The notes beneath the pieces were generated by a model. The model was not told where the DNA came from, ran no database searches, and saw nothing but the letters and a program-made list of their open reading frames with translations. The position numbers were made by a program, and so were the translations under genes. A stretch of 64,000 bases of DNA from a bacterium (GTDB lineage Bacteria; Sysuimicrobiota; Sysuimicrobiia; Sysuimicrobiales; Segetimicrobiaceae), in contig DATGJN010000117.1 in NCBI GenBank assembly GCA_035295165.1, positions 24,114-88,113 of the forward strand, given 5' to 3'. The first letter of the stretch is position 1; each line of letters starts with the position of its first letter. Positions 10,278-29,269 of this stretch are shown here, in pieces.

Positions 10278-11357
10278 CTACGAGAACAGCGTCCCCTGCC
10301 CGCGCCCGCCCCGATCCGGCACGGCCAGACCCAGGTGGTCGCAGGCCTGGGCGGTCACACGACGCCCGGATTGGGTGCGGGTCAGGAACCCGATCTTCAA
10401 CAGGAACGGCTCGACCATCTCGACGAGGCTGTCCACCTCCTCGTTGAGCGTCGCGGCGAGCGCCTCGACCCCGACCGGCCCGCCGCCGTACACCTCGATC
10501 ACCGTGCGCAGCAGCTCCCGATCCTGCACGTCGAGCCCGAGCGGATCCACGCCCTCGAACTCGAGGCCATCGCGCGCGACCTCCACCGTGATCGCGCCGT
10601 CCGCGCGAACCTGCGCGAAGTCACGCACGCGGCGCAGCAGCCGGTTCGCGATCCGCGGGGTGCCCCGGGCGCGTCGCGCGATCTCCGCGGCGCCGTCGTC
10701 CGTGATCGACACCCCGAGGATCGAAGCCGAGCGCCGCACGACCAGCGTCAGCTCGTCGACGGGGTAGAAGTCGAGATGCTGCGTGATCCCGAACCGCTCC
10801 CTGAGCGGGGACGACAGCAGGCCGGCCCGGGTCGTGGCCCCGACGAGCGTGAACGGCCGCAGCGTGTACCGCAGCGTCCGCGCGTGCGCGCCCTTCTCGA
10901 TGACGAAGTTGACGCAGAAGTCCTCCATCGCCGGGTAGAGGAACTCCTCCACCGTGCGCGGCAGGCGGTGGATCTCATCGATGAAGAGCACGTCGCCCTT
11001 GCTGAGGTTGGTGAGGATCCCCATCAGATCCCCGCCGCGCTCGAGGGCCGGCCCCGACGTGGTCACGATGCTCGTCCCCATCTCGGCGGCGACCACGTTT
11101 GCGAACGTCGTCTTGCCGAGCCCCGGCGGCCCGTGCAGGAGCACGTGATCGAGCGCCTCGCCGCGCTCGCGCGCGGCCTGCAGGCTGATCTTGAGCGCGC
11201 TGGTGACGCGGGTCTGCCCGATACACTCGTCGAGTCGCTTCGGACGCAGGCTGCGGATGAGCTGCTCGTCCTCGACCCCGCTGGGCGCGGGCCCCGCCGC
11301 GGGCGCGGGCCCCGGCCGCGGGTCGGACATGCCGCCGACGAGCCGCTCGCGGGTCAC
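10278..11357 (-). CDS. ruvB: Holliday junction branch-migration helicase RuvB
   Basis: Walker [10 protein letters not shown], a sensor region and a C-terminal winged helix. 4-nt overlap with ruvA. Confidence 0.95.
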
Positions 11358-11989
11358 GCGGGCGCTCCCCGCTCGGCGCGGTACACTTCCTGGAACAGAT
11401 CTTCTGCGGACGCGATCGCGGGGTTCCGCCGGAAGGCGTCCTCCACCATCCGCCGGGCCTCCGCGCCGCGGTGCCCCAACTGTCCGGTCAGCACCTCGAT
11501 CACCTCCGCGCGGAAGTCCTCCGCCGCGACCTCCGGCGGTACCGGTGTCTCGGACCGGAGCAGCGCGTACTTGCCCATCTTGCCGTGGAGGGAGGCCACG
11601 ATCTTCTCCGCGGTGCGCGCGCCGATCCCCGGCAGCCGGCGCAGAAACGCCACGTCTTTGCGCTCGATCGCGTCCGCGACCTGCTCGACCGGGTGCACGA
11701 TCGCTTTCATCGCCTTCGTCGGCCCCAACCCGTCGACGGTGATGAACCGCTCAAAGAACTCCTGCTCGATCTCTCGAAGAAACCCAACGAGCAGCGGCCT
11801 GGGCTGGTTCGTCGACACATGATAGGAGATGTGCAGTTCAAGTTCGGCTTCGCGGATCCGGCCCGGCTCCCCCCGCAGGAGGTCCCGGAGAAACCCCGGC
11901 AGCCGCACCTCGTACCCGACGCCGCCACACTCGATCACCAGCATGTCGTCGGCGTGGCGGATGACGCGCCCGCGCAAAAACGCGATCAC
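11354..11989 (-). CDS. ruvA: Holliday junction DNA-binding protein RuvA
   Basis: MIAFLRGRV... with tandem HhH motifs ([13 protein letters not shown]). Confidence 0.9.
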
Positions 11990-12495
11990 GCCGGCGCCCG
12001 GGCGCCGGCGCCGATCTGCAGCGCGGCCCCCCGCCGGGAGGCTGCAACGAGGGCGAGTGCCAGCGCGTCCGCCGCGTGCGAACCCGGCTCCTCAGCGAGG
12101 TTCAACAAGATGCGCACCATCCGCTGGATCTGGCGCTTGTCGGCCTGACCGGACGCGACCATGGCCCGCTTCACCGCGGCCGGCGCGATCGTGTCCACCG
12201 GCACCCGGGCCTGGGCCGCCGCGAGCCCGATCACCCCGCAGACATGCCCCATGATGATGGCCGTTCTGGGAAAGCCGGGATGGGCAAAGACATCCTCAAG
12301 GGCGATCGCGGCCGGCCGGCCGGCCGCGAGAATCTCGTGTACGCCCACGTGCAACTCGTGAAGTCGGATCGGGAGCGTGGCGCGAAGGCTGGTGCGGATC
12401 ACGCCGGCCTCCACGAACGCGACCCTGGCCCCCGTCACTTCGACGAGACCATACCCGGTCAACCGCAGTCCCGGGTCGATCCCAAGAATCCGCAT
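11986..12495 (-). CDS. ruvC: crossover junction endodeoxyribonuclease RuvC
   Basis: MRILGIDPGLRLTGYG... RNase H-like fold with catalytic acidic residues. Start chosen at M3 of the ORF. Confidence 0.9.
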   Translation of the reverse strand: MRILGIDPGLRLTGYGLVEVTGARVAFVEAGVIRTSLRATLPIRLHELHVGVHEILAAGRPAAIALEDVFAHPGFPRTAIIMGHVCGVIGLAAAQARVPVDTIAPAAVKRAMVASGQADKRQIQRMVRILLNLAEEPGSHAADALALALVAASRRGAALQIGAGARAPA

Positions 12496-12602
12496 GAACA
12501 CTGCTCCGACTCGGCATGGGCCGCTGCTGCGTCTCGATCAACAACGAACCAATGTTCGCCATTGGCCCCAACTCTCCTCCGCCCGGAGGCGGGCCGTCGA
12601 GG

Positions 12603-13064
12603 CTAGCGAGCCAGGAACAGGGGTTTCACGCCCTGCATCCGGAGGTAAATCGACAGCTGACCGTTGTGGTAGAACATGTGCGTGACCCCGCCCTGGACGA
12701 CGATCCCCTGCGGCATCTCCATCCCCCACGGCGTGCGGACGACGCGGTTGGCCTCTTCGTCCGTGAGACGGGCCACCCCAGCCAGAAACCGCTGCCCGGC
12801 TTCGCGCATCGCGGCAAGAACCTGCGATTTCGACATCGGCGCGTCCATCGGATACGGGATGGCGCGCTCCCACACGTCCTTGCCGATGTTCTGGCCGAAG
12901 GTCGTGGTGGCGTTCGCCATGTGGACGGCAATCGCCCGAAACGAACGCGTGTCCAGCCCGGCCGGCGTGAACTCCATCCCGGCCTCGGGCATCGCCTCGA
13001 CGTTCTTCTGGACGGTGTTCCAGATCAACTGAAACCCCGCCTGCACACCCTCACGAACCCCCAT
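12603..13064 (-). CDS. DinB/YfiT-family (DinB_2) metal-dependent protein
   Basis: HxxYHxGQ hallmark (HMFYHNGQLSIYL) plus an upstream His-containing helix. Appears co-transcribed immediately after yebC. Confidence 0.55.
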   Translation of the reverse strand: MGVREGVQAGFQLIWNTVQKNVEAMPEAGMEFTPAGLDTRSFRAIAVHMANATTTFGQNIGKDVWERAIPYPMDAPMSKSQVLAAMREAGQRFLAGVARLTDEEANRVVRTPWGMEMPQGIVVQGGVTHMFYHNGQLSIYLRMQGVKPLFLAR

Positions 13065-13078
13065 ACGCGCCTCCCAGA

Positions 13079-13819
13079 TTAGCCAACCTGTTGCAGAATC
13101 TCGTCGGGAATGTCGAAGTTCGCGTACACATGCTGCACGTCATCGTGGTCCTCGAGCGCCTCCATGAGGCGCAACACTTGTTGTGCCTCCTTGCCCGAGA
13201 GCGGGACGGTCGATTTCGGCATCATGGTGACCTCGGCCGAGTTCAACTTGTATCCGGCCTCTTCGAGCGCCTTCCGCACGGCGGCGAAATCCTCGGGCGC
13301 CGTCGTAATCTCGTACTCGTCCTCGCCGGTCTTCACGTCCTCCGCACCGGCGTCCACCGCCCGTCCCAGGATCTCGTCCTCTGAGGCCGCCGAACGCGGA
13401 ACCGTGATCACGCCCTTCTTGTCGAACATCCACGCCACCGAGGCCCCCATCGAGCCGCCGGCTTTGGTCAGGATGTTCCGGATCTCCGACGCGGTCCGGT
13501 TCCGGTTATCGGTCTGCACCTCGACCAGCACGGCGACGCTCGCGGGCCCCATGCCCTCGTAGGTGACCTCCTCGTAGTTCGCGCCCTCGGCACCGCCGGT
13601 GCCTCGGGCGATCGCGCGCTGGATATTGTCGTTCGGCATGCTCGCCTCGCGGGCGCGGTCGATCGCCGCGCGGAGGCGCATGTTGCCGCCGGGGTCGCCG
13701 CCGCCGTCTTTCGCGGCGATGATGATCTCGCGCGCCAGCTTGCTGAACAACTTGCCCCGCTGCTGGTCCACTTTGGACTTCTTGATCTTGATATTGTGCC
13801 ACTTGGAATGTCCGGACAC
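13079..13819 (-). CDS. yebC: YebC/PmpR-family DNA-binding transcriptional regulator
   Basis: MSGHSKWHNIKIKKSKVDQQRGKLFSKLAREI... canonical YebC. Confidence 0.92.
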   Translation of the reverse strand: MSGHSKWHNIKIKKSKVDQQRGKLFSKLAREIIIAAKDGGGDPGGNMRLRAAIDRAREASMPNDNIQRAIARGTGGAEGANYEEVTYEGMGPASVAVLVEVQTDNRNRTASEIRNILTKAGGSMGASVAWMFDKKGVITVPRSAASEDEILGRAVDAGAEDVKTGEDEYEITTAPEDFAAVRKALEEAGYKLNSAEVTMMPKSTVPLSGKEAQQVLRLMEALEDHDDVQHVYANFDIPDEILQQVG

Positions 13820-23104: not shown

Positions 23105-23213
23105 CCGTATCCCTCCTTGGCGTGGCGTGCCTACTGCGTCGTGCAGTTTCTTATTACGCAACGCTACGGCGGGCGGGCCCGAAATGTTCCTAGAATTTCC
23201 CTCCCAAGTTACA

Positions 23214-23227
23214 GTATCTATAGATAC
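23214..23227. promoter_or_regulatory. perfect 14-bp palindrome GTATCTATAGATAC, plus a TAGATACG direct repeat 20 bp downstream, in an AT-rich 300-bp divergent control region
   Basis: Seen directly. Lies between the sugar ABC operon (minus) and imuA (plus). Confidence 0.3.
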
Positions 23228-23373
23228 GTGCAGATATGTTTAGATACGGTTTGATCGCGGGTTTTCAATTTTGAGCCGGAATAGTCCTCTCTGAATCATT
23301 GGGAATCTGGATGGGATTGCTGGTCTATTAGAGCGACGTCCTCAAAACACAAAAACCACTTGCAATTATATAC

Positions 23374-23387
23374 CGAACATATGTACG
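23374..23387. promoter_or_regulatory. LexA (Cheo-type) SOS box CGAACATATGTACG, 25 bp upstream of imuA
   Basis: 13 of 14 positions match the Bacillus consensus CGAACATATGTTCG. Overlaps a putative TTGCAA / TACGATAT promoter. Confidence 0.55.
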
Positions 23388-23411
23388 ATATATGCTGACG
23401 GTGCGTCTACT

Positions 23412-24035
23412 ATGCCGACCCCCGCGCGTGATGTGCTGAACCGACTCTCGTGGCGTCCAGTCACGAGCGTGCCGGCCGCGCCCGGCGCGCCGACGCTCGC
23501 CGCGCTGGCCGGTCAGTTGAGCGAGTTCTCGGGGCTCGGAGCCACGGCCGGTCTCACCATGGCAACGCGGTTGGTGCTAGACGCTCAACAGCAAGGAGAG
23601 ATCGCCGCCTGGATCACTCCTGTGGATCGGACCTTCTTCCCCCCAGACGTCGCGGAGAGCGGCGTGGATCTCGCCTCCCTGGTGGTGGTGCGCATCCCCG
23701 ACGCGATCGCCGCGGCGCGCAGCGCCGACCGGCTCACGCGATCGGGGGCCTTCGGCCTGCTGATCCTGGATCTGCATGGATCCCACACGCTGCCGCCCCA
23801 CGCGCTCGCCCGGCTCGCGGGACTGGCCCAACAGCATCACACGGCGATCGTCTTCGTGACGCAGAAATCCACCGACGCCGCATCGCTGGGATCGCTGATC
23901 GCGTTGCACGGCACGACGACGCGCGTGCGTCTTGAACCAGACGCGTTCACGTGCGCCCTGCGCATCGTCAAGGACAAGCGTCGGGGTCCCTGGACGTTCG
24001 AGGAAGTCTGCCGTGGACCGGCTGGCCTGCGTTAA
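23412..24035 (+). CDS. imuA: ImuA-like (inactive RecA-fold, SulA-like) mutasome protein
   Basis: About 207 aa with a degenerate RecA-like core (...SEFSGLGATAGLTMATRLVLDAQQQGEIAAWITP...GLLILDL). First gene after the LexA box and before imuB-dnaE2. Confidence 0.65.
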   Translation: MPTPARDVLNRLSWRPVTSVPAAPGAPTLAALAGQLSEFSGLGATAGLTMATRLVLDAQQQGEIAAWITPVDRTFFPPDVAESGVDLASLVVVRIPDAIAAARSADRLTRSGAFGLLILDLHGSHTLPPHALARLAGLAQQHHTAIVFVTQKSTDAASLGSLIALHGTTTRVRLEPDAFTCALRIVKDKRRGPWTFEEVCRGPAGLR

Positions 24036-25521
24036 CGTCCCGGAGTTTCCGATGCAGATCCTCCTCCGCGATCACCCCGAGTGGCGCGGGACGCCCGCCG
24101 CCGTCCTCGAGGAAGATCGACCGCAGAGCCCGGTTGTCTGGGTCAACGACCACGCCCGCCGGGCAGGAGTGCGTCCCGGCATGCGGTTTGCCGCCGCACT
24201 AGCGCTTTCTCCAACCCTCAACACGGGATGTGTCTCTCCCGTCCACATCGCGCAAGAACAGGATCGCCTGATCGCCAGGCTCCGGAAGTTCACGCCGGAC
24301 ATCGAACCGGCGGACGAACCCGGGATGTGCTGGGTCGGCCTGACCGGACTCGAACACCTCTATCCCTCGCCGGAGCGCTGGGCCGATGCGATCCGCGCGG
24401 ATCTCCAGGAGACCGGGATGCAGGCGACCGTGGTAATTGGGTTCACCCGCTTCGGCACCTACGCCGTCGCGCAGATTTCCCAGGGCACGCGGATCTTTCA
24501 CGATCCCGCCGACGAACGAACGGCGGCGATGGACGTCCCGCTCGCCCGTCTCGCGCTCGCCCCGGAGCTGCGGGATACGCTCGCCAAGCTCGACGTGACG
24601 ACCGTGCGCGCCCTAGTGCGGTTGCCGGAGGCCGGACTCCTCGAGCGGTTCGGCGTCGAGCCGTACCGGTTGCATCAGGCGGTCGGTGCGCGGTCGACGG
24701 CGTTGCGGCCGTCCGCCGAGCCCCTCCCCGTACGCGCTCGGCGCACACTCGACACACCGGAAACCGATCTGTCCCGATGCCTCTTCGTGTTCAAGCAGAT
24801 GCTCGACCCGATGCTGGCCACCCTGGCCGCCCGGGGAGCGGCGCTCGCCGCGCTCGGGATCCGGCTCAAGTTCGACCGGCACGGATGGCAGGCGGACCAT
24901 GTCCGGCCGGCCGCCCCGACGCTCGATTCCGTTCAAGTGCTGGATTTGGTCCGACTGCGCCTGGAGACCGTCCGGCTCTCCCAGGCGCCCGCGGAAGCGC
25001 AGCGGGCCGCAGCCGGGATCGTCGACATCGAACTCACGGCCGAGGCAGTCCTCGCGACCCACGAGCAGCTCCGGTTCTTTGGCGTCCATCCGCACCGCGA
25101 TCTCGCCGCCGGCAACCGTGCGCTGGCCCGCCTCCGGGCCGAGCTCGGCGAGCAAGCGGTGGTCCGCGCGCGGCTTCGAGACGGCCACCTCCCCGAGTCC
25201 CACGTCACGTGGGAGCCGGTGGCCGCGCTCACGCTCCCCCGCCCCACCCTTGTGCCGCAGCGGACGCTCGTCCGGCGCATCTGGACGCATCCGGTGCCGG
25301 TCGCGACGGCCACGACGCGGCAACACGACGGATGGCTGATTCTCGGGACGGCGTACGGTGCGGTGGACGACCTGCTCGGTCCCTACGTCGTCTCCGGCGG
25401 CTGGTGGGTCCGCGAGGTGGACCGCGCCTACCACTTTGCGCAGACCAGGCGCGGCGACCTCTTGTGGGTATACCACGATCGGCGGCGGCGGCGGTGGTTC
25501 CTGCACGGCCAGGTGGAGTGA
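24013..25521 (+). CDS. imuB: Y-family-polymerase-like mutasome subunit ImuB
   Basis: N-terminus [23 protein letters not shown]... (UmuC-like fold lacking catalytic acidic residues). GTG at 24013 after GAGGAAG; overlaps the imuA 3' end. Confidence 0.8.
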
Positions 25522-25525
25522 CCTC

Positions 25526-28500
25526 GTGTACACGCCGCTGTGGTGCAAGAGCGCGTTCTCATTTTTGGAGGGCGCATCACACCCCGAGGAGTTGGTGGAC
25601 GAGGCGCACCGCCTCGGCCTGCGGGCTATCGCGCTGACGGACCGCGACGGCGTGTACGGGGTGGTGCGCGCGCACGTGACGGCACGCGAGACGGGATGCC
25701 GCCTGATCTCCGGCGCGGAGGTCACCCTCACCGACGGCTCGATGGCCGTCCTCCTCGCGCAGGACCGCACCGGCTACGCGAACCTCTGCCGGCTGCTCAC
25801 GCTGGGGCGGCGCCGGTCGCCCAAAGGCATCAGCACCGTCACCTGGGCCGAGGTCTGCGCGCATGCGCGCGGCCTCATCGCGTTGTGGGGCGGAGATCGG
25901 AGCCTGCTCGCTGGCGAGTCCGTCCCGGACGCGGTCGCCGGATCGGTGCGGGACGCGTTCGGCGACGCGGTGTACGCACTCGTCACCCGCCACCGCCAGA
26001 GCACCGACCCTCGCCAGGAGGCGCGGGTACGCAACCGTGCCGCCCGCTACGCCCTCCCCGTCGCGGCCGCGGTCGAGGTCCTCTATCACACGCCCGCCCG
26101 CCGGCCGCTGCAGGATGTCCTCACCTGCCTCAGGCACGGGACCCAACTCGCGGACGCCGGGCGGCTGATTAAGCCCAACGCCGAGCACGCCGTGCTCTCG
26201 CCGTACGCGTTCGCAACACTGTTCCAGGACGATCCGGACGCCGTGGCCCGCACCGAGGAGATCGCCGCACGGTGCGTCTTCTCGCTCGATCAACTCCGCT
26301 ATCGCTATCCGGAGGAACGGGTCCCCGTGGGCACGACCCCCGAAGCCTGGCTCCGCCGACTCGTGTTCGAGGGCGCCCGGGAGCGCTATCCAGACACGGT
26401 CCCGACCGACGTCGCGCAGCAGCTCGAAAAGGAACTGACGCTGATCGCCGAGCTGGACTACGGAGGGTACTTCCTGACGATGTGGGAGATCGTCCAGTTT
26501 TGCCGCCGGGAAGGAATCCTCTGTCAGGGACGCGGCTCCGCCGCCAACTCCGCCGTCTGCTACTGTCTGGGGATCACCGCGGTGGATCCGGTGCGGATGA
26601 ACCTGCTGTTCGAGCGCTTCCTCTCCCGGGAGCGCGCCGAGCCGCCCGACGTAGATCTGGACATCCAGCACAATCGCCGCGAGGAGGTCATCCAGTTCGT
26701 CTACACGCGATACGGACGCACGCACGCGGCGATGGTCGCGAACGTCATCCGCTACCGCCCGCGGTCGGCCGTGCGGGACGTCGGCAAGGCGCTGGGGATT
26801 CCGGAGACCGGGCTCGACCGCCTGGCCCGGCTCCTTGACTACGGCGGCGCGGTCCCCCCGGAGACGCTGCAGGCGGCGGGGCTGGATCCGGAGACCCCGG
26901 CGCACCGGCACCTACTGCGCCTCACGAACGAGCTGGTGGGACTCCCCCGCCACCTGTCGATCCACCCCGGTGGGTTCTTGCTGGGCGATCACCCGGTGGA
27001 CGAGATCGTCCCGATCGAGAACGCCACGATGGACGACCGGACGGTCATCCAATGGGACAAGGACGATCTCGAAACCCTTGGGCTGTTCAAGGTGGATTTG
27101 CTTGGGCTCGGCGCGCTCACACATCTCGACCTGGCGTTCCAGTTGCTCCGGGGCCACCGGGGCGTCGCGCACTCCATGGCGACGATCCCGGCGGACGATC
27201 AGGCGACGTTTGCGATGGCATCCCGCGCCGACACGGTCGGCGTGTTCCAGATCGAAAGCCGCGCCCAGATGGCGATGCTCCCGCGCCTGCGGCCGCGCAG
27301 CTTCCATGATCTGGTCGTCGAGATCAGCATCGTGCGCCCGGGCCCGATCACGGGAGGGATGGTGCATCCCTATCTGCGCCGCCGGAACGGCGAGGAGAAG
27401 GTCGAGTATCCTCATCCGTCGCTCATCCCGGTCCTCGAAGGGACCCTCGGCGTTCCCCTCTTTCAGGAACAGGTGATGCGGCTCGCGGTCGTCGCCGCAG
27501 ACTACACGCCGGGCGAGGCCGACCAACTGCGTCGCGACATGGCGGCCTGGCGCCGCACCGGCCGCATCGAGCGCCACCGCGACCGGCTAATCTCGCGCAT
27601 GCAGGCCAAGGGAATCGCGCCCGAGTTCGCCGAGCGGGTGTTCAAGCAGATCTGCGGGTTTGGGGAATACGGCTTCCCGCAGTGTTGCGTGGGTGAGACC
27701 TGGGTCCTTGATGCCTCGACGGGCCGCTGGGTCATGATCAAAGACGTGGCGCACGGACGCGTGCGGTTGCGGACCACGCTCGCGTGCGACGCGAATCTCC
27801 GTCTTCGCAAACGCCGCGTGACAGGGGTGACATCGAGCGGGCCCCGACCGGTCTTTCGAGTGGTCACGGCGCTCGGACGATCCGTCGCCGCCACGATTGA
27901 GCATCCGATCCTGACCCCGGAGGGATGGGTTCCGCTCGGTGCCCTGCGGCCGGGAGATCGCATCGCCGCCGCGCGCAGGGCCACAGCTCCAAAGCCCACC
28001 AATGGAATCCATCAGGACGGGATGACGTCACGCGAGGTCGTCCCGGTGGGCGTGAGAGAAATCGTCGACCGCGAGGTCGCTCGACGCCCCGACGCCCGGC
28101 AGCAACGCACTCCCCCCACCAGCTTGCGTCTGCACGAGGCGCAACCCGGTGATGTACTGCGCTGGTCTGTGGCCCGCGCTGGGCGCGAGCGTCGATCCTC
28201 GGATCGTCCCCAACTCGCCACTGCCGACGTTTATTGGGACCGCGTCACGATGATCCAGCCGCTCGGTATGCGGGACACGTACGACCTGCACGTGGAAGGC
28301 GACCACAACTTCCTCGCCAACGATCTCGTGATCCACAACTCGCACGCCGCCAGCTTCGCCCTGATCGCCTACGCGACCGCGTATCTCAAGTGCCACTTCC
28401 CCGCGGAGTTTACGTGCGCGCTCCTCAACGCGCAGCCGATGGGCTTCTACAGCGCGGCCACGATCGTCGAGGACGCCAAACGCCACGATATCGTCGTCCG

Positions 28501-29269
28501 GCCGGTGGACGTCCGGCAGAGTGCGTGGGACTGCACGCTCGAACCGTGCGCGCGCGCCGGCGGAATGGCCGTGCGCATGGGGCTGCGCTACGTCCACGGG
28601 CTCGGCGAGGATGCCGGCACGCGCCTGGTACGCGTCCGCGACGAGGCGCCGTTCGCATCGCTCGACGACTGCGTGCGGCGGGCCGGGCTCGACCGGGGTG
28701 CGCTCGCCGCCCTCGCGGAGGCGGGGGCATTCGAGCGCTTCGACGACAACCGTCGAGCGGCGTTGTGGGAGGTGCACGGCCTGGCGCGCCGGCGAGAAAT
28801 CGCGCTGCCGATCAGCGTGCCCGAACCTGCGCCGGCGCTCACCCCCCTGAGCCTCCGCGAGCAGATCGCCTGGGACTATCGAGTCGCCGCCCACAGCACC
28901 CGAGGACACCCTCTGGAAGCACTCCGGGAAGACCTTCGGTCTGCAGGCCTACCTGACGCGCGCACTGTCGGCACACTCCCCAACGGCCGCGCCGTCCGGT
29001 ACGCGGGGCTCGTCATCTGCCGGCAGACGCCCGGTACTGCGTCGGGCGTGACCTTCATGACGCTCGAGGACGAGACCGGCTTCGTCAATCTCGTCGTCTG
29101 GGAACGCGTCTTCGAGCGGTTCGTGACGTTGGCTAAAACCGCCGTGTTCCTCGGCGTCTCGGGAACGATCCAGCGAGAACACGAGGTCGTCCACATTGTC
29201 GCCCGGACGCTGTGGACGCCGTCGGTCCACCACCGCCCGCCCATGCTCCGAAGCCGGGATTTTCACTAG
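25526..29269 (+). CDS. dnaE2: error-prone DNA polymerase III alpha-type DnaE2 (ImuC), interrupted in frame by a mini-intein
   Basis: N-terminal PHP domain [18 protein letters not shown]..., palm/fingers motifs, and a C-terminal OB fold. GTG at 25526 after GGTGGAG, 4 nt past the imuB stop. Confidence 0.9.
27683..28339 (+). other. mini-intein (Hint domain, 219 aa, no LAGLIDADG/HNH endonuclease) inserted in the DnaE2 finger motif GFPQ|SHAASFA
   Basis: Block A CCVGETWV. Block [15 protein letters not shown]. Blocks [24 protein letters not shown] followed by +1 Ser. Conceptual excision restores the conserved Pol III alpha [12 protein letters not shown] motif. Confidence 0.8.

Follow-up and report, generated by a model that had tools for sequence, protein, structure and literature searches.

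Inteins cluster in proteins of DNA replication and repair; a role for some of them as post-translational regulators is debated and has been proposed for the inteins of mycobacterial RecA and DnaB. A fingers 'hot spot' has been described for 116 inteins of the alpha subunit of DNA polymerase III (Pol III alpha; Novikova et al. 2016, PMC4760082), and the site of the element analyzed here lies within it. This element is an in-frame insert of 219 codons in dnaE2, the gene of an error-prone DNA polymerase, found on a 64,000-nucleotide stretch of the metagenome contig DATGJN010000117.1 from a bacterium of the Sysuimicrobiota. The whole stretch is called the window, and all positions are counted in it. 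The insert occupies positions 27683–28339 of the forward strand and is almost certainly an intein.

The mini-inteins of Ssp and Npu DnaB and of Mtu RecA (PDB 1MI8, 4O1R, 6FRH and 2IMZ) have the same Cys1, TxxH motif, block F and G residues and terminal His-Asn as the window copy, and the DnaB inteins share with it a serine at position +1. They differ in host protein and insertion site and are 21–24% identical to it in structural alignment; unlike them, the window copy retains, as a vestige, a linker of about 80 amino acids (aa) that is helical or disordered. In the solved DnaB and RecA mini-inteins the endonuclease of the parent was presumably removed by engineering; the window copy, judged by alignment to its relatives, has lost its endonuclease naturally.

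The cyanobacterial split DnaE intein (Ssp and Npu DnaE) is also of class 1, and its host motif is the same, YGFNKSH in the Pol III alpha fingers. It is, however, encoded by two separate genes, splices in trans and has a cysteine at +1, whereas the window intein is contiguous and followed by serine. Its site, KFAEY/CFN (PDB 1ZDE), corresponds to E. coli Y754/G755, four residues upstream of the window site, and it is a much weaker structural match to the window model (Foldseek E about 1e-8). Membership of the window copy in this group is ruled out by the contiguous gene and by the site four residues downstream. Inteins of the replicative DnaE1 at the same site as the window copy share its position, and they have an intein-plus-LAGLIDADG architecture akin to that of the DnaE2 family described below; their host is the essential replicative paralogue.

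A literature search on inteins in DnaE2, ImuC, the mutasome or error-prone DNA polymerases yielded no paper describing one, within the searchable literature; in surveys of Pol III alpha, inteins were excised before analysis. An intein in a DnaE2 host is apparently not described; the kind of element, its site, architecture, fold and evolutionary behavior are standard. Many public genomes of uncultured bacteria already contain the same allele.

The insert, its predicted fold and its host

The insert comprises 657 nucleotides (nt), contains no stop codon and is in frame, on translation, within the open reading frame (ORF) 25358–29269. Its junctions read FGEYGFPQ / CCVGETWV...HN / Ser+1. The original prediction, made from the letters of the window and a list of its ORFs, had proposed an in-frame insertion of this length that opens with CCVGETWV as block A, contains a block B and ends in blocks F and G before a serine; all of these are present on translation, and every string quoted was found where it had been placed. 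The hallmarks of a class-1 intein are thereby covered in full: Cys1, TxxH (T71-I-E-H74), the block-F aspartate D201, H218-N219 and Ser+1.

Two splicing lobes enclose a middle segment, all on the forward strand. The N-terminal splicing lobe (aa 1–97; 27683–27973) contains the block A Cys1 and the block B T71-I-E-H74 (27893–27904), with C1, T71 and H74 conserved in a family of 75 aligned members, and it aligns to the Ssp and Npu DnaB and Mtu RecA inteins. The C-terminal splicing lobe (aa 181–219; 28223–28339), delimited by profile match and by sequence alignment to PDB entries, contains D201 and H208-N-F of block F and H218-N219 of block G, which are invariant in 75 of 75 members. Between them, the vestigial linker (aa 98–180; 27974–28222) was delimited by alignment to relatives of 420–440 aa and has no Pfam match.

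For the 219-aa segment, the original prediction had suggested a search with intein profiles, the lack of any Hint-domain match counting against an intein. All three intein profiles scored above their cut-offs: Pfam Intein_splicing (PF14890) at 57.3 bits against 35.8 (E=2e-15), TIGR01445, for the N-terminal splicing region, at 31.3 against 24.5, and TIGR01443, for the C-terminal splicing region, at 25.5 against 15.6. The profile match of the insert is far beyond chance. In the same Pfam search, no LAGLIDADG, HNH or other endonuclease profile matched the segment. Compared by sequence with the PDB, the insert matches the Npu and Ssp DnaB mini-intein structures with E about 1e-17, and the Mtu RecA mini-intein as well; the alignment takes in residues 4–100 and 174–219 and leaves the middle unaligned.

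An AlphaFold2 model of the insert, built on an alignment of 42 sequences made from database proteins, has a mean per-residue confidence score (pLDDT) of 82.8. Residues 1–100 and 181–219 are predicted at more than 90 (93–98 in the C-terminal lobe), and residues 101–180, with a few helices, at 40–74. With this predicted structure as the query, the top 50 Foldseek matches in the PDB are all intein, Hedgehog-autoprocessing or bacterial intein-like (BIL) domains, the best being the mini-inteins of Ssp DnaB, Mtu RecA and Npu DnaB (target-normalised TM-scores 0.81–0.94). The model thus predicts a HINT fold for the insert.

The junction itself was examined by aligning the exteins. With the insert removed, the sequence runs without a gap across the junction against the Pol III alpha structures of Taq, E. 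coli and M. tuberculosis, and YGFPQ-SHAASF matches YGFNK-SHSAAY, so that the insertion site is E. coli K758/S759 in the fingers domain. The conserved finger motif that the original prediction had described as interrupted is therefore restored as a contiguous one. A continuous alignment of the 219 aa to DnaE2 proteins without an intein, which had been named as evidence to the contrary, was sought and the opposite found: in P0129, an intein-less metagenomic DnaE2 fragment, both exteins align gap-free across the junction (75% and 67% identity) and the 219 aa have no counterpart. No intein domain is present in 119 of the 120 homologues closest to the junction region.

The host was correctly named as the error-prone polymerase DnaE2. 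The ORF scores 1321 bits against NCBIfam NF004225 (error-prone polymerase; cut-off 939) and 640 bits against the replicative DnaE model NF004226, below the cut-off of 1002; an ImuA candidate and an ImuB of the IMS family lie directly upstream. Pfam domains in the ORF are PHP, DNA_pol3_alpha, DNA_pol3_finger, HHH_6 (HhH) and the tRNA_anti-codon OB fold, and the YGFPx-SHAASF motif is typical of DnaE2-type matches. The alignment to NF004225 starts at ORF residue 58, and the likely start of dnaE2, judged from the sequence, is the GTG at 25526, 4 nt past the imuB stop and preceded by GGAG. From this codon, the calculated precursor has 1247 aa and the spliced product 1028 aa. The N-extein (25526–27682), in a frame open from 25358, spans PHP, palm and fingers up to ...YGFPQ, as delimited by Pfam and NF004225. 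The C-extein (28340–29269, stop codon included) contains the HhH and OB domains (Pfam) and aligns from its first residue, Ser+1, to P0129 and to the Pol III alpha structures.

Alleles at the same site and the loss of the endonuclease

A word-indexed protein search with the intein alone returned six fragments only; a profile search and a genome scan revealed the family. In the scan, which covered one genome per GTDB species and used a small intein alignment as the query, 186 stretches encode a relative, and 80 of these loci (L001–L080) were returned. A homologous intein occupies the identical DnaE2 site (C...HN between YGFP[E/Q] and SHAxSFAL) in 78 of the 80, and 74 of these 78 are uninterrupted; the hosts in the remaining two loci are DnaB and a P-loop helicase. 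All 80 loci come from genomes assembled from uncultured bacteria, with lineage labels that include Steroidobacteraceae and other Gammaproteobacteria, Rokubacteria/Methylomirabilota, Kofleriaceae and other Myxococcota, Armatimonadota, Acidobacteriota and others. Intein lengths range from 137 to 440 aa, with 31 loci above 400 aa, 28 at or below 160 aa and 15 in between. In the long forms there is a LAGLIDADG endonuclease with two motifs (Pfam LAGLIDADG_3, PF14528; E=1e-16 to 4e-15 in L013 and L016). Across the 75 aligned members, C1, D201, H208-N209-F210, H218-N219 and Ser+1 are invariant, T/S71 and H74 are each present in 74, and a non-catalytic cysteine, Cys35 (27785–27787 in the window), is likewise conserved in 74.

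Compared with these alleles (among them L013 and L018, of 438–440 aa with LAGLIDADG, and L072, of 144 aa), the window copy has the identical site, homologous lobes (42–72% identity) and, within its own clade, the same imuA-imuB-dnaE2 context. Its deletion end-points are its own, at 219 aa it is intermediate in length, Cys2 and Trp7 are unique to it, and it has a helix-turn-helix-like segment that has decayed. Within the clade of DnaE2 genes to which the window belongs (exteins 76–87% identical), the inteins measure 144, 372, 385, 438 and 440 aa, and these differing lengths indicate that the deletions arose independently.

Aligned to the relatives of 420–440 aa, the window intein shows a gap of about 220 aa that takes in both LAGLIDADG motifs. 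The label of mini-intein, which had been proposed for want of a LAGLIDADG or HNH core, is therefore correct, and membership in the LAGLIDADG-containing inteins is ruled out, the domain being absent in the window copy and present in L013 and L016. A refinement concerns the middle of the insert: the segment between the lobes is not a plain linker but a decayed remnant, about 80 aa long, of the part that follows the endonuclease in the relatives, where it aligns to GRMSRDIVPVAVREVIRRE and further to FRRWVIARLGR...LATSDIYWDRV. In this retained segment the window copy is 37–40% identical to L013, L018 and L067, which are 71–80% identical to each other over the same columns, while in the splicing lobes it is 64–79% identical to the same three. 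This pattern fits relaxed constraint on a DNA-recognition remnant combined with continued constraint on splicing.

A three-frame translation of the linker revealed no compensating or hidden frameshifts, and since neither of the other two frames contains relative-like sequence, the linker has diverged by substitution. Recent acquisition was considered on grounds of composition and rejected, because the G+C fraction of the intein (0.66–0.69) shows no anomaly against its flanks (0.65–0.74). Intein and extein divergence are correlated (Spearman 0.64). Together, this correlation, the flank-like composition and the lack of hidden frameshifts point to long residence and not to recent acquisition.

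The same site is also occupied in the replicative paralogue. In an exhaustive HMMER search, 1.84 billion cluster representatives yielded 4504 matches with E<=1e-3, of which 43 reached E<=1e-30; a 1453-aa DnaE2 ranked first (59% identity). Site occupancy was counted on 149 newly fetched representatives among 150 listed: an intein follows the pattern YGF(N/P)x / C...HN / SH in 47 of the 149, with 10 hosts of DnaE2 type and 37 of DnaE1 type. The DnaE1-type hosts read YGFNK/.../SHxxxY in proteins of 1500–1800 aa (P0272–P0388 range), and the best-scoring models for P0031 and P0045 are those of replicative DnaE. Hosts of the same-site DnaE1 LAGLIDADG inteins belong to Anaerolineae, Rhodothermales and many other lineages. 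Most inteins of DnaE2 type are about 52–62% identical to the window intein and the DnaE1 alleles 37–47%, so the DnaE2 alleles form the closer cluster. K758/S759 is thus a commonly occupied Pol III alpha site, shared by DnaE1 and DnaE2, and inteins may plausibly have passed from one paralogue to the other by homing at the motif they have in common.

Several further observations concern the family. The 385-aa DnaE2 intein of L067 (L067:5254–6408) has LAGLIDADG, but some 38 aa are missing from its N-terminal lobe, block B (TxxH) among them; it may be either a splicing-dead copy or an assembly artefact. The DnaE2 inteins of L034, L062 and L069 (from about 6001) have a length not divisible by three, or change frame internally, and could represent either decaying dnaE2 pseudogenes or sequencing errors in assembled genomes. 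Close relatives of the intein also occur in a P-loop helicase (GTGVGK/C), in DnaB and in dCTP deaminase (L046:3357–4142, L066:6001–6639, P0060/P0065/P0083), so that one intein lineage has colonised several genes of nucleotide metabolism and replication. Finally, P0016, P0040, P0012 and P0017 are pieces of 600–760 aa, consisting of the intein and the DnaE2 HhH/OB C-terminus, that are named 'LAGLIDADG family homing endonuclease' or 'intein/homing endonuclease', and in public gene calls the C-terminal half of such genes often bears the first of these names or 'hypothetical protein'. In these lineages gene callers split or misname dnaE2, which leaves it under-annotated there.

Splicing competence and rival explanations

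The reading favored here, with a probability of roughly 85%, is that of a canonical, splicing-competent class-1 intein. The whole 1247-aa precursor would be translated and the intein would then fold into a HINT domain. Excision would take four steps, first an N-S acyl shift at Cys1, then the attack of Ser+1, the cyclisation of Asn219 and finally an O-N shift, joining ...YGFPQ to SHAASF... in an active DnaE2 of about 1028 aa. The ancestor would have been a LAGLIDADG-bearing intein that spread by homing into this conserved position of Pol III alpha. The lineage of the window copy has since lost the endonuclease core by deletion, and the adjoining segment has decayed, leaving an element no longer able to home. 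The intein would persist because only its precise removal would restore the gene at a conserved site.

We infer the splicing competence of the window intein from its sequence, and several points weigh against it. The window copy has Cys2 (27686–27688) where 71 of 75 members have valine, so that two cysteines are adjacent at its start; it has Trp at position 7, where most members have Arg, and Gln at -1, where most have Glu. Any of Cys2, Trp7 or Gln-1 could slow or alter splicing. Decay does occur in the family, as the copy without block B (L067) and the frameshifted copies (L034, L062 and L069) indicate. Seen together with the lost endonuclease and the decayed linker, these atypical residues and decayed copies would suit a splicing-dead or badly impaired relic, in which case dnaE2 would in effect be a pseudogene or give rise to cleavage products only. 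Such a relic is unlikely, since all catalytic residues are intact, the lobes have kept 64–79% identity to the relatives against 37–40% in the linker, no stop interrupts the frame of 1247 codons, and the exteins exceed the curated cut-off for DnaE2; as to Gln at -1, it recurs in seven other family members.

The cysteines also bear on a different proposal, namely co-option of the intein as a conditional switch whose splicing would respond to DNA damage or to the redox state, possibly by way of Cys1, Cys2 or Cys35. Conservation of Cys35 in 74 of 75 members, the unique Cys2 beside Cys1 in the window copy and the persistence of the intein after loss of its endonuclease are compatible with it, and the M. 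tuberculosis RecA intein, which is reported to splice conditionally after DNA damage (PMC11377839), provides a precedent. Persistence after endonuclease loss, however, is expected of any intein in a conserved site, and a Cys2 found in the window copy alone is not one for which the family selects; co-option as a switch is rated improbable. There is scarcely any room for the view that the segment is a lineage-specific insertion domain or a BIL domain kept in the mature polymerase. The in-frame nature of the insertion is all that speaks for it; the full set of intein motifs with Ser+1 at a highly conserved host site, the intein profiles above their cut-offs, the match of the fold to solved inteins, the allelic forms with a LAGLIDADG endonuclease and the intein-less alleles in close relatives effectively refute it. 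The canonical, splicing-competent intein therefore stays the preferred explanation.

The imuA-imuB-dnaE2 operon and its significance

DnaE2, also called ImuC, is encoded by the last gene of a tightly coupled imuA-imuB-dnaE2 operon on the forward strand. The imuA-like gene (23412–24035; 207 aa, RecA-fold) has weak matches to ImuA_translesion and RecA; its score of 28.9 bits against the NCBIfam model ImuA_translesion lies below the cut-off of 150 and makes the assignment weak. Downstream, imuB (24013–25521; 502 aa) encodes a Y-family polymerase homologue with a Pfam IMS (impB/mucB/samB) match at E=5e-16 and weak matches to Pol IV families; as a class, ImuB proteins are inactive Y-family homologues. 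Its start, a GTG at 24013 proposed from the sequence, overlaps the end of imuA and has GAGGAAG 7–13 nt upstream. The gene order is kept in five relatives (L072, L067, L009, L018 and L055).

On the forward strand at 23374–23387, 25–38 nt upstream of the imuA start codon, lies a Cheo-type candidate for a LexA (SOS) operator, CGAACATATGTACG. It reads GAAC-N4-GTAC and is one mismatch away from CGAAC-N4-GTTCG; GAAC-N4-GTTC is the Gram-positive-type LexA operator, a motif whose binding by LexA is established. The same box occurs upstream of imuA in L072 (CCGAACATATGTACGA), and in L009 (TTGACTATCGAACATATGTTCGTATAAT) it is located between clear -35 and -10 hexamers, as in a textbook promoter, with a nearly identical arrangement in L018. 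Two results count against SOS control in the window: the number of LexA-box matches there is not above that in shuffled controls, and a strict sigma-70 scan upstream of imuA found no promoter, a manual match (TTGCAA-N18-TACGAT) agreeing at 8 of 12 positions only. Because the count is not above chance, the argument relies on the position of the box and its conservation in relatives, from which SOS/LexA control of imuA-imuB-dnaE2 appears likely; LexA would then bind the box.

With the operon apparently under LexA control, an active mutasome polymerase would need both SOS induction and splicing. It is a reasonable inference, already drawn in the original prediction, that translesion capacity depends on splicing, on the premise that the precursor is inactive.

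Other features of the window touch on the same control. The sole perfect CGAAC-N4-GTTCG palindrome in the window, CGAACCAATGTTCG (12545–12558), lies about 45 nt upstream of ruvC, the first gene of a ruvC-ruvA-ruvB operon on the minus strand (12501 to 10281; region 10281–12558). This placement makes ruvCAB a likely second SOS-regulated operon of the window. Directly upstream of ruvC, the minus strand at 12606–13819 encodes a DinB-family protein (PF05163/PF12867, 153 aa) and a YebC/PmpR-family regulator; linkage of yebC and ruvC is common, and a DinB-family gene inserted there is less usual. The 250 bp upstream of imuA (23160–23411) are much more AT-rich than their surroundings of roughly 70% G+C, and within them, ahead of the LexA-like box, two copies of the 8-mer TAGATACG (at about 23221 and 23241) are spaced 20 bp apart. 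The repeated 8-mer could be the site of a second regulator.

An intein in a polymerase of damage-induced mutagenesis offers a clean test case for the function of such elements, as its host is non-essential and apparently SOS-controlled and its output, the mutation rate, is measurable. Every stage of decay is represented in the family, whose full LAGLIDADG inteins measure about 423 aa and whose mini-inteins are as short as 137 aa, and the family would be useful for mining compact splicing domains that tolerate serine at +1; the site shared by DnaE1 and DnaE2 is of use for studying intein homing between paralogues. If splicing were conditional, error-prone lesion bypass would have to pass two gates, one set by LexA and one after translation, and the family of 186 stretches would be a retained regulatory module and not a purely selfish remnant.

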